64,000 nucleotides of DNA from Escherichia coli (GTDB lineage Bacteria > Pseudomonadota > Gammaproteobacteria > Enterobacterales > Enterobacteriaceae), in NCBI RefSeq assembly GCF_045037415.1, contig NZ_CP173438.1, one strand, 5' to 3'. A program made the position numbers. Position 1 is the first letter of the stretch. The number at the start of each line of letters is the position of its first letter. Below are positions 54,533-58,063 of this stretch, piece after piece.

Positions 54533-57500
54533 GAATACAGGAGTAAATAATGCAAAAAATCGTGATCGTTGCCAATGGCGCACCTTACGGGAGCGAATCC
54601 TTGTTTAACAGCTTGCGGCTGGCCATTGCGTTACGAGAGCAGGAGAACAATCTGGATCTGCGTCTGTTCCTGATGTCTGATGCGGTCACAGCCGGGTTGC
54701 GCGGGCAAAAACCAGGGGAAGGCTACAACATTCAGCAAATGCTGGAGATCCTTACCGCTCAGAATGTACCGGTGAAATTGTGCAAAACCTGTACCGACGG
54801 GCGCGGGATTAGTACACTTCCTCTGATTGATGGGGTGGAAATCGGTACTCTTGTTGAACTGGCGCAATGGACGCTGTCAGCCGATAAAGTGCTCACATTT
54901 TAATGTTTGAGGGGGCGTCGGACGCCCCACTATGAGGGAAGTTTACTCAGGCGAATCCCGGCCGTAACACACCATCCGGATAATTCTCCGCCAGCAGTTT
55001 TTTTACCGATACCAGCAAATCATTCAGCCCATCGTCCTGCATTCCCAGTTTGATAAGCTCCTGTTCCAGTGAAAACAGGTATTGTGCATTGGTTCCCAGC
55101 GGACCGCTCGCCGCGGCAATCAACGGCGCTATGACCTGAGCGCGAGTGTCAGATTCATATTCTGGATGTCGCGGGTCCATAATAAACACAATGGCGTTTA
55201 CTGTGCGTCCATCATCAAGATCAAGCTGACACCAGGTTGGCAGATAACAGCCGGTAATCATCTCACGCTTCCACAGCAGGGTTAGTTCCTGCTCCAGCGT
55301 CTCTTCTGGCAGTCGATAGGCGACGCCTGTGGTGCGTCCGCCCTCTTTCAGTGCAAGCATTCGTCCCGGCTGGTGCGCAGTCCCGCGCCCGGCGGTCAGA
55401 CGCAGGCAAAACGCGCGATGCCATCCAACCAGTGTACCGGTGCACGACTCGGTAAACTCCAGTGCCGGATTCCACATCAACGATCCATAACCGAAGATCC
55501 ACACCGGTCCCTCATCAGGTCGACAAGCCAGCGTCGCCGCCAGCGAAGCCGCCCGTTGTTCTGCTGACCATAAGAGTGATTCTTCAATGGCACCAAATGC
55601 CGTTTTACAATCGGCATTCATCAAGAAATCACGCGTTATCACCTTACACCTCCGCCACTGCATACTTCCCTGCGACAACTTTTTGGTGTCTTCCGGACAT
55701 TTTTACTGCTCATTTTGAAACCACTAACGGGACAATATGCAATCCACGGACCACTTGCAAGGCAACACCGCACGAATAGCTTTAACTAAGCTACCGGTTT
55801 GACGATTTTTTATGCCATTTATCATCATCCCCTTTGGCATATTCATGCTTCACAGCAGCCCAGGCCACTTTATGCGCTGTTTCTTCGCGACTGGCGTCAT
55901 CACGCCGATCTTCTTTATCTTTATATTGATCCCATGCGCTGTTGAACGCTTCTTTATAGATATCCTGGGCATGAGACGGAAGCACGTGCTTTACGCTTTC
56001 CGGCAGATCGCTTTTCGTTTTATACGACATCGTTGACTCCTTTTACAAAGTTGAACATTAAGTGTGGTCAACAATATCTACTCTTGCCAAAACATAAGAA
56101 TTTTCATGTCAGACTCTTCTTAAGAAGTGCTAAAACAAACATTGTCTAAACGTATTACTAATTTTTATGCCCAAATGAGTAAAAAACCGACAGCGGGGTA
56201 AAAATTCGTAAAATGTTACCGATATCCAGACAATTTCTGTTATTTTTCCTACCTATTTTTTACATTTTCGATAAATTCATCTGCAAAGGGATAACCATAA
56301 TGTCAAATGCTCAAGAGGCGGTAAAAACCCGCCACAAGGAGACTTCGCTTATTTTCCCGGTTCTGGCGCTGGTAGTGCTGTTCCTGTGGGGAAGCAGCCA
56401 GACACTACCAGTGGTCATTGCCATCAATCTTCTTGCGCTTATTGGTATTTTAAGTAGCGCCTTTAGTGTTGTCCGTCATGCGGACGTATTAGCCCATCGC
56501 CTGGGAGAACCTTACGGTTCGCTTATTCTTAGCCTTTCAGTGGTTATTCTTGAAGTCAGTTTGATTTCAGCTTTAATGGCAACCGGCGATGCCGCGCCAA
56601 CGCTAATGCGTGATACGCTCTATTCAATCATTATGATTGTTACAGGTGGGCTGGTTGGCTTTTCATTATTGTTGGGCGGACGTAAGTTTGCCACCCAATA
56701 TATGAATCTGTTTGGTATCAAGCAGTATTTAATTGCGCTGTTCCCCCTGGCGATAATCGTACTGGTATTTCCAATGGCTCTGCCTGCGGCGAATTTTTCA
56801 ACAGGTCAGGCGTTACTGGTAGCATTAATTTCTGCGGCAATGTATGGCGTATTTTTGCTGATCCAGACCAAAACGCATCAAAGTTTGTTTGTCTACGAGC
56901 ACGAAGATGACAGTGATGATGACGACCCGCACCACGGTAAACCGTCTGCCCATAGCAGCCTGTGGCATGCCATCTGGTTGATTGTCCATCTGATTGCCGT
57001 TATTGCAGTCACCAAAATGAACGCCAGCCCGCTGGAGACATTGCTCGACAGCATGAATGCGCCTGTCGCCTTTACTGGCTTCCTGGTGGCTCTGTTGATT
57101 CTGTCGCCGGAAGGTTTAGGTGCGTTAAAAGCAGTGTTGAATAACCAGGTCCAGCGCGCGATGAATCTGTTCTTTGGTTCAGTGTTGGCAACCATTTCGC
57201 TTACCGTACCTGTCGTCACGCTAATTGCCTTTATGACGGGTAACGAATTGCAGTTTGCACTTGGTGCGCCAGAAATGGTGGTGATGGTGGCCTCTTTAGT
57301 ACTGTGCCATATCTCCTTCTCCACCGGACGAACTAACGTGCTCAATGGCGCAGCGCATCTGGCACTGTTTGCCGCCTATTTGATGACGATATTTGCCTGA
57401 CAGTTATATCTCCTCCGATGACGGAAATCGGGGGAGATAATATAAATTCCTGCTTATTATATTTCTTCATACTAGCTGGACAGGTTGTTAATCAGAATTG

Positions 57501-58063
57501 CAAGCCTGTACCACAACCTGCACGAAATGACTGCAACAGCTGTTGAAAAACCGGAATGTACTCTTTATTGCAAACATTTCAGGGATGAAGTGAAGATGAA
57601 TTGCGACGTAGTATCCACACCAAGCCGGCGTTATCCGGTGAGGCGCAATGTTGCGGGGGCTTTATCCCTGGTGGCATTGGTTGCTGGAAAGAGAAAACCC
57701 CCGCACGTTGAGAGGTACAACCTGACAACAGAACGGGGGCTAATCTTGAACCAGAACAATTCAAGAATAGCCGCAAAATGTTGTCATTACAACAAGGCGG
57801 CTATATGACGCTCGCGCAGTTTGCCATGATTTTCTGGCACAACCTGGCGGCACCGATCCTGGCGGGGATTATTACCGCAGTGATTGTCAGCTGGTGGCGT
57901 AACCGGAAGTAAGGTGAAAACGGGCGTCAGGCTGCCGTGATGGCAATATGCGCCCGAAACCGGCCGCAGGGGTAACAGCCTGCGGCCTTTTTTGTATCCG
58001 GCACCCATGAAAAAAGTCTTAACGCAGAACGCTAAGACTTTATTTTTCAGGCAAAAAAGATTA

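Follow-up and report, generated by a model that had tools for sequence, protein, structure and literature searches.

The interval between chaA and kdsA in the stretch of DNA analysed here (64,000 nt of Escherichia coli contig NZ_CP173438.1, hereafter the window) very probably holds one intact Ldr/Rdl type I toxin-antitoxin module, truly in single copy and orthologous to ldrA-C/rdlA-C of K-12. The difference in copy number with K-12 is correct but ordinary: about one quarter of complete E. coli genomes are also single-copy at this site. In this study, we located the toxin gene, its antisense RNA and their predicted signals (Table 1), and compared the locus with those of other E. coli and of related species.

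Table 1. Features of the ldr/rdl locus and its flanks in the window
Feature	Coordinates	Strand	Description
Inverted repeat just 3′ of the chaA stop (probable chaA terminator)	57407..57439	+	13-nt arms, 92% complementary
LDR core	57524..57993	+	homologous to each K-12 LDR-A/B/C repeat unit, from K-12 alignments
Predicted ldr promoter	57586..57614	+	-35-like TGAAGT (57586-57591), 17-bp spacer, -10 TAGTAT (57609-57614)
Predicted ldr mRNA	57621..57993	+	~373 nt; 5′ end inferred from the conserved -10 box, 3′ end at the terminator
rdl antisense RNA (antitoxin)	57691..57757	-	16-nt single-stranded 5′ tail, long stem-loop, U tail
Upstream ORF (ldrX candidate)	57746..57808	+	starts at a TTG within the stretch complementary to Rdl, has 20 codons and ends at a TGA that overlaps the ldr ATG (ATGA)
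Predicted rdl promoter	57764..57792	-	-35 TTGTAA (57792-57787), 17-bp spacer, -10 TATTCT (57769-57764)
SD-like GGCGG of ldr	57796-57800	+	
ldr toxin CDS	57805..57912	+	35 aa + stop; ATG 57805, TAA 57910-57912
3′-UTR element	57921..57954	+	predicted pairing with the ldr RBS/start region (57780-57814) and with 5′ GGCGCA (57642-57647)
ldr intrinsic terminator	57962..57993	+	9-bp stem with 8 G-C pairs at 57962-57987, then TTTTTTGT (T run)
Hairpin downstream of kdsA (probable kdsA terminator)	58010..58044	-	15-nt arms, 87% complementary

Toxin gene and flanking genes

Translation of positions 57805-57912 gives a 35-aa protein, MTLAQFAMIFWHNLAAPILAGIITAVIVSWWRNRK, which matches the Pfam family PF13940 (Ldr_toxin) over its entire length (residues 1-35 of 35, 81.2 bits for a cut-off of 27). 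The RefSeq entry for the identical protein, WP_001531632.1, is named Ldr family toxin, and the LdrD structure 5LBJ is matched with an E value of 3.6e-10. Toxins of the Fst/Ldr type are characterised by a PXXXG motif in the transmembrane helix, conserved Trp and a charged or basic C-terminus (PMC7472228, PMC2887945). This signature is present here as P17-ILA-G21, W29-W30 and the basic C-terminal RNRK, respectively.

In the ORF listing, ldr forms the 3′ portion of a 44-aa ORF opening at an in-frame ATG at 57778. This codon was rejected as the true ldr start, as LDR-D and other genera have either ACG at this position or a different frame. Downstream of the gene, the ldr terminator is kept in all units of a 12-unit alignment.

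The flanking gene chaA, on the + strand, ends at 57400 and kdsA lies on the - strand at 58061..58915, leaving an intergenic distance of 660 bp with one unit. RefSeq annotation of strain SK1144, which is 100% identical, concurs on these two flanks. The first-pass annotation had proposed a 35-aa Ldr ORF with a strong terminator between chaA and kdsA, and this is borne out by Pfam, by RefSeq and by the terminator call.

The Rdl antisense RNA

An Rdl RNA had been expected on the opposite strand, inside 57480..57804, and it was located there by Rfam and by alignment to K-12. The Rfam family RF01813 (rdlD) matches 57692..57757 on the minus strand with 86.3 bits (gathering score 50, E 4e-18), and the stretch 57757..57691 is identical to K-12 rdlA at 67/67 nt. 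The predicted fold of Rdl, composed of a 5′ tail and a stem-loop, has an energy of -27.1 kcal/mol (z = -4.7), and a terminator-like site lies within rdl at 57716-57697. Rdl is fully complementary to the mid-portion of the ldr 5′ leader. Its 5′ end is found 47 nt upstream of the ldr ATG, and both the RBS and the start of ldr are outside the overlap. Since the rdl gene (57691-57757, -) is without annotation in the RefSeq record examined, its location is of value for annotation.

Promoters and extent of the ldr mRNA

No promoter was called by a sigma-70 consensus scan of 57380-58080. Both promoters were therefore predicted from conservation and from hexamers matching the consensus at 4 of 6 positions. 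The predicted ldr promoter was missed by the scan because its -35 is weak. Its two elements, CGTAG(T/A)ATC and (G/A)TGAAG, have been retained in 14 loci belonging to 4 genera, in the midst of DNA that has diverged. In the predicted rdl promoter, both hexamers are 4/6 consensus matches and stand under the scan threshold; across the 12-unit alignment the -10 region (TCAAGAATAGCC) is conserved, as is most of the -35 box (GTCATTACAAC, with three variable positions).

Conservation with LDR-D and with other genera begins abruptly at the -10-like box CGTAG(T/A)ATC (57609-57614). This onset puts the start of the ldr mRNA probably near 57621, which would correspond to a leader of ~184 nt. The leader of ~320 bp initially proposed (57480..57804) is consequently too long, and 57480-57620 is promoter and upstream repeat DNA rather than leader. 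The predicted mRNA folds at -162 kcal/mol, with a z of -4.96 when compared to shuffles.

Proposed mode of regulation

In K-12, LdrA is located in the membrane and causes a rapid drop in ATP (PMC8309996). The toxicity of LdrD is repressed by Rdl (PMC4147584) and RNase III-dependent dsRNA is formed at ldrD/rdlD (PMC7373196). As shown for the K-12 homologues, the + strand of the present module would produce a stable and highly structured mRNA of ~373 nt encoding a 35-aa inner-membrane toxin, and the - strand the 67-nt Rdl, identified by sequence identity. Rdl would bypass the ldr RBS and would instead cover the start region of the upstream ORF (TTG 57746). Blocking this ORF would in turn block the coupled translation of ldr, in line with the proposed ldrX coupling model (PMC4147584, PMC8167048), and the Rdl-mRNA duplex may be a target of RNase III. 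In 20/20 distinct units, the ORF starting at the conserved TTG runs uninterrupted to the ldr start codon, with three different frame relations.

When the mRNA is full-length, its 3′-UTR element is predicted to pair with the ldr SD and AUG, which would generate a closed, hok-like mRNA. RNAalifold on 12 diverse units returned 27 + 6 long-range pairs with 95-99% of cells paired and one compensatory pair; for the helix joining the initiation region to the 3′ UTR, the figure is 95-98%. These helices show weak covariation with a majority of invariant pairs, and the same 12-unit alignment served to derive the structure. As modelled here, the module would fit the published hok/sok-like scheme.

Copy number at the chaA-kdsA site and its direction of change

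A pattern search of the 64-kb window found 1 ldr copy against 0 expected, and no tandem array was found around ldr in the 5 kb scanned (55000-60000). In K-12, according to its annotation, ldrA/rdlA, ldrB/rdlB and ldrC/rdlC follow one another every 535 bp in the kdsA-chaA interval. The first-pass annotation was thus right to report one copy here for three in K-12. It had also deduced that copy number differs between strains, and this holds for E. coli at large. We searched 5,426 complete E. coli genomes with a 141-bp probe covering the inter-copy junction: 4,086 contain it over its full length, and in the other ~1,340 (~25%) it gave only a 45-bp fragment or no match. In an even sample of 40 genomes, the site carried one copy in 11, two in 10, three or more in 18 and none in 1. 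The single-copy count was taken from the junction probe and from this sample, as a longer, 1,860-bp chaA-ldr-kdsA probe joins two-copy arrays into one place.

Single copies at chaA-kdsA are found on at least 5 different Ldr alleles. The allele of the window is carried by 546 complete genomes, which apparently represent the ST131 lineage. Genomes of the window's lineage have three tandem ldrD-type copies at bcsG-yhjV, for one in K-12, so that the ldr total is four in both (3+1 in K-12 and 1+3 in the lineage). The arrays at chaA-kdsA and bcsG-yhjV could act as simple lineage markers.

Such variation would reflect the ordinary expansion and contraction of tandem arrays of ~535-bp units through homologous recombination. 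From sequence comparison, the window's lineage most likely descends from a state with a tandem array and was secondarily reduced to a single copy. In E. whittamii and in Escherichia sp. E1V33, the second copy is likewise preceded by the inter-copy spacer of K-12, and the tandem state is therefore older than E. coli. Alternatively, the single copy might be an ancestral state that was kept, the three copies of K-12 resulting from later amplification. This reading departs from a secondary reduction only in the direction of change. It draws on the presence of one ldr between chaA and kdsA in Pseudocitrobacter faecalis and P. vendiensis, and on E. coli E69, the representative of its own species cluster in the collection, which is also single-copy. 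We regard it as possible but unlikely, given the two-copy state with a homologous spacer in E. whittamii and Escherichia sp. E1V33. Moreover, single-copy strains differ in allele and include two rdl 5′-tail types, which fits repeated reductions or gene conversion.

The cross-species scan used an exact 27-base Rdl pattern and gave only 10 loci, none of them from E. albertii, E. fergusonii or Salmonella; the polarity rests on few outgroups. One of the 10 loci lies on a 503-bp contig with 0.66x coverage in a Bacillus assembly and is probably a contamination.

The D13N allele and integrity of the single copy

The Ldr protein of the window is identical to K-12 LdrA at 33/35 residues, the two changes being D13N and A26V. 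Asp13 occurs in 19/21 Ldr copies sampled from 8 species. D13N is the sole lineage-specific feature of the module and, judging from the sequence, its toxicity could differ from that of LdrA.

One could therefore envisage an attenuated module, in which D13N (together with A26V) would weaken or alter the toxin and leave mainly an Rdl antitoxin gene. The conservation of Asp13 in the other copies would point in this direction, as would the confinement of N13 to one clone-like set of 546 genomes and the fact that the closest allele, that of GPEC1035, carries V26 with D13. Fst, a related toxin, does not tolerate uncharged residues in place of the charged ones at its N-terminus (PMC7472228), a parallel that would hold only if these residues are equivalent to D13 of Ldr. 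However, the ORF, the SD, the PXXXG motif, the Trp residues and the basic C-terminus are all intact, N13 also occurs independently in Escherichia sp. E1V33, and the allele is stably retained in the 546 genomes. Attenuation thus appears improbable.

It is a little less probable still that Ldr dosage would be balanced across the two LDR sites (1+3 versus 3+1), with D13N possibly accompanying a shift of function from A-type to D-type toxins. This pattern and the D13N allele offer a natural entry point for testing the redundancy of A-type and D-type Ldr.

Finally, a collapse of two or three tandem 535-bp units into one during assembly is hardly credible: most E. coli do have tandem arrays of near-identical units, which short-read assemblers can merge, but sampled complete genomes of the lineage align the 1,860-bp chaA-ldr-kdsA probe as one 100%-identical piece, all 546 complete genomes with the allele carry it exactly once, and single copies are also found in other lineages and other species. 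Copy-number differences at chaA-kdsA should not be taken for assembly errors.

Comparison with known systems

The closest known system is ldrA/rdlA (LDR-A) of K-12, found at the same chaA-kdsA locus and in the same orientation. Positions 57607..57840, comprising leader, rdl and CDS start, are 100% identical to LDR-A. K-12 has the three units LDR-A/B/C, whereas only one is found here; the DNA around this unit matches the flank of LDR-C on the chaA side (upstream of ~57524) and that of LDR-A on the kdsA side (downstream of 57993). The long direct repeat of the unit is a property of the K-12 locus, absent here with one unit, and not a trait defining the module. In K-12, overexpression was reported to be toxic, and the cognate Rdl to relieve this effect, for LdrD/RdlD and for LdrA (PMC4147584, PMC8309996).

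The experimentally characterised ldrD/rdlD (LDR-D, bcsG-yhjV) displays the same architecture, with conservation of the -10 box, the entire leader and the terminator. It differs in its locus, in protein identity (~54%) and in the loop and 5′ tail of Rdl. In addition, LDR-D has its upstream TTG ORF in the frame of ldrD, whereas this ORF ends at the ldr ATG here.

Similarity to hok/sok/mok of plasmid R1 and its chromosomal homologues lies, according to the published model, in an antisense RNA directed against a leader ORF coupled to the toxin. A closed mRNA, with pairing between 5′ and 3′ ends and between the initiation region and the 3′ UTR, is predicted here as well. The hok toxin is unrelated, and Ldr groups with Fst. 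Membership in hok/sok itself was rejected, the Rfam sok/hok-leader model RF01794 giving only 31.4 bits for a gathering score of 59. With Fst/RNA I-RNA II (par of pAD1), the module has the toxin signature in common, the match to the NCBIfam Fst model being weak (16 bits, below the cut-off of 26). The two also differ in the region overlapped by the antisense RNA, which is the 3′ end of the toxin gene in Fst systems (PMC2887945) and the 5′ leader in the present module.

Earlier work had described ldr/rdl units that were duplicated or lost in a lineage-specific manner (PMC2887945). The toxin gene already has its annotation in RefSeq, and the RNA family is listed in Rfam.

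The chaA-kdsA intergenic region carries one complete ldr/rdl unit

The 660-bp chaA-kdsA intergenic region of the window sequence contains an LDR unit, whose features are collected in the table. As the first-pass annotation had proposed, it includes a 35-codon Ldr ORF followed by a strong terminator. Pfam Ldr_toxin covers the ldr product over its full length (81.2 bits, cut-off 27) and the product matches NMR-solved LdrD (5LBJ, E 3.6e-10). In strain SK1144, which is 100% identical, RefSeq annotates the same ORF as WP_001531632.1, 'type I toxin-antitoxin system toxin Ldr family protein', with chaA and kdsA on either side. 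An extended Ldr of 44 aa (57778-57912, +), starting at an in-frame ATG 27 nt upstream, was rejected since this ATG is not kept in LDR-D or in other genera.

Features of the chaA-kdsA interval (window coordinates)
Feature	Position	Strand	Remarks
chaA	ends 57400	+	upstream flank
CCGGAATG block	57550-57560	+	GGAA core, variable flanks
CGTAG(T/A)ATC	57609-57614		start of cross-genus conservation
Predicted 5′ end of ldr mRNA	near 57621		
rdl	57757..57691	-	K-12 rdlA, identical over all 67 nt
Upstream TTG	57746		conserved; preceded by GGGGG
ldr SD	57796-57800		GGCGG
ldr toxin ORF	57805..57912	+	35 codons; translation MTLAQFAMIFWHNLAAPILAGIITAVIVSWWRNRK
Intrinsic terminator of ldr	57962-57987	+	strong; 9-bp stem, 8 G-C pairs, T run after
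kdsA	58061..58915	-	downstream flank

An Rdl antisense RNA had been expected opposite the leader. It was indeed detected there by the Rfam rdlD model on the minus strand (57692..57757, 86.3 bits for a gathering score of 50, E 4e-18), and the suggested alignment to the K-12 LDR sequences placed it precisely. In its predicted fold, Rdl leaves 16 nt free at the 5′ end, followed by a long stem-loop and a U tail (-27.1 kcal/mol, z = -4.7). Rdl variants diverge chiefly in their 5′ tail and apical loop, which are likely the determinants separating A-type from D-type pairs. In O157:H7 Z852, the chaA-proximal copy (copy 1, L019:999-1106 and its leader) is without 6 nt equivalent to window positions 57731-57736, within the Rdl stem, and its antitoxin RNA may be impaired. 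Elsewhere in the window, we observed a DicF antisense RNA (4015-4066, +, 76.7 bits), the usual marker of a Qin-type prophage remnant, and a tRNA gene (34637-34718, +).

Comparison with K-12 and copy number

K-12 MG1655 harbors three long direct repeats at this position (ldrA/rdlA, ldrB/rdlB and ldrC/rdlC, period 535 bp), as the first-pass annotation had stated. In contrast, a pattern search found the LDR unit once in the 64-kb window and Tandem Repeats Finder detected no tandem array at the locus. The chaA-side flank of the unit is that of LDR-C and the kdsA-side flank that of LDR-A. From 57607 to 57840, rdlA included, the sequence is identical to LDR-A, while the coding region differs from ldrA by D13N (57841), A26V (57881) and two synonymous changes. 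Of 21 Ldr copies examined in 8 species, 19 have Asp13, and the two that do not are the window allele and one copy of Escherichia sp. E1V33; the nearest E. coli allele, that of GPEC1035, has V26 but retains D13. The Pseudocitrobacter vendiensis ldr at chaA-kdsA (L012:1443-1547) is probably a pseudogene, since its codon 30 has become a premature stop (W30*).

A single copy could result from collapse of tandem repeats during assembly. This is very unlikely, because the N13 allele, searched with a 34-nt probe positioned so that each 28-nt seed word spans the variant base, is present in 546 of the 5,426 complete E. coli genomes, always exactly once, and in no others, and because a 1,860-bp chaA-ldr-kdsA probe aligned without a break and at 100% identity in those complete genomes of the lineage that were sampled. 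Strain names among the matches (JJ1886, several O25b:H4-ST131 isolates) point to ST131. Insertions within the matched chaA-ldr-kdsA interval were observed in several E. coli strains (ISApl1-family, IS200C, ISVsa5 and one integrase-core-domain gene; hits H71, H81, H86 and H104 of the 1,860-bp probe).

Copy number had also been predicted to differ between strains, and it does. The junction between K-12 copies was searched with a 141-bp probe, which matched at full length in 4,086 of the 5,426 genomes, through its 45-bp terminator part only in 1,265 and not at all in 75; about 25% of genomes are thus without the tandem junction. An even sample of 40 genomes gave one copy in 11, two in 10, three or more in 18 and none at chaA-kdsA in 1. 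Five single-copy strains of different backgrounds carry five Ldr alleles and two Rdl 5′-tail variants. Carrying a single copy is not exceptional.

A 660-bp probe hit four places in every genome that is 100% identical. Besides the chaA-kdsA unit, these are three ldrD-type copies repeated in tandem every 483 bp between bcsG and yhjV, a site at which K-12 carries ldrD only once; such an array lies at L014:2102-3175 (NZ_OY019088.1, outside the window) and likewise in SK1144, JJ1886 and others. The lineage is therefore 1 + 3 where K-12 is 3 + 1. An LDR-D-like unit on a 503-bp contig (L013, 0.66x coverage) of the Bacillus sp. EB106-08-02-XG196 assembly is almost certainly enterobacterial contamination.

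Direction of the copy-number change

Outside E. coli, chaA-kdsA holds one ldr in two Pseudocitrobacter species and two in E. whittamii and Escherichia sp. E1V33. In the latter two, the second copy is preceded by a spacer homologous to the one between the K-12 copies, so the tandem arrangement appears older than E. coli. We therefore consider the single copy here to be, fairly probably, a secondary reduction via recombination between units. That it retains an ancestral single-copy state is a less likely reading, and a rather doubtful one. That ldr/rdl units have been duplicated and lost in particular lineages was already described in 2010 (PMC2887945). The module is fully known, and its copy-number state is common and already known; the initial observation and its interpretation are both right, leader length excepted.

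Transcript start and leader

The leader had been estimated at 320 nt, which is too long. Conservation with LDR-D and with the Citrobacter and Pseudocitrobacter loci starts only at CGTAG(T/A)ATC, implying an ldr mRNA of ~373 nt with a leader of ~184 nt. The short CCGGAATG block, some 50-60 nt before the predicted -10 box of ldr, is kept in ldr loci of four genera while adjoining DNA diverges, and could serve as a regulator site or an UP-like element. Against the Rfam sok/hok-leader model, the leader (57655-57807, +) had a weak match that stays below threshold (31.4 bits vs 59, E 1.7e-4), which could be chance or a distant likeness of the two leaders.

Regulation and likeness to hok/sok

Of the K-12 homologues, LdrD and LdrA arrest growth when overproduced (PMC4147584, PMC8309996); LdrA is membrane-located and ATP collapses within minutes (PMC8309996). 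RdlD relieves LdrD toxicity (PMC4147584, PMC8309996) and the rdlD/ldrD overlap forms RNase III-dependent dsRNA (PMC7373196), although the repression mechanism is still termed unconfirmed (PMC4147584, PMC8309996). In the published hok/sok-like model, Rdl blocks a leader ORF, ldrX, translationally coupled to ldr (PMC4147584, PMC8167048).

In the window unit, Rdl has its 5′ end 47 nt before the ldr ATG and therefore leaves the ldr SD uncovered. Rdl does cover the conserved TTG, from which an ORF runs to a TGA overlapping the ldr start codon (ATGA). This ORF stays open through the ldr start codon in 20 of 20 distinct units from 8 species, even though indels put it in three different frames relative to ldr: it stops at the ATG, continues in frame into ldr, or stops 17 nt downstream. 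Such conserved openness is no more than suggestive of ldrX, since the rdl promoter and RNA structure also constrain this region. By this scheme, Rdl would block the TTG ORF, the ldrX candidate, and hence coupled ldr translation.

RNAalifold on 12 diverse units paired the ldr SD and AUG region (57780-57814) with a 3′-UTR element (57921-57947), and the 5′ GGCGCA (57642-57647) with UGCGCC (57949-57954). Across both long-range helices (33 pairs), 95-99% of cells are paired, compared to 34-50% in slid controls, with compensatory change in only one pair. Full-length ldr mRNA would, on this model, stay closed, its SD and AUG region being paired with the 3′ UTR. The anatomy found here fits the hok/sok-like ldrX model, and the predicted closed ldr mRNA is reminiscent of full-length hok mRNA, which is closed and translationally inert.
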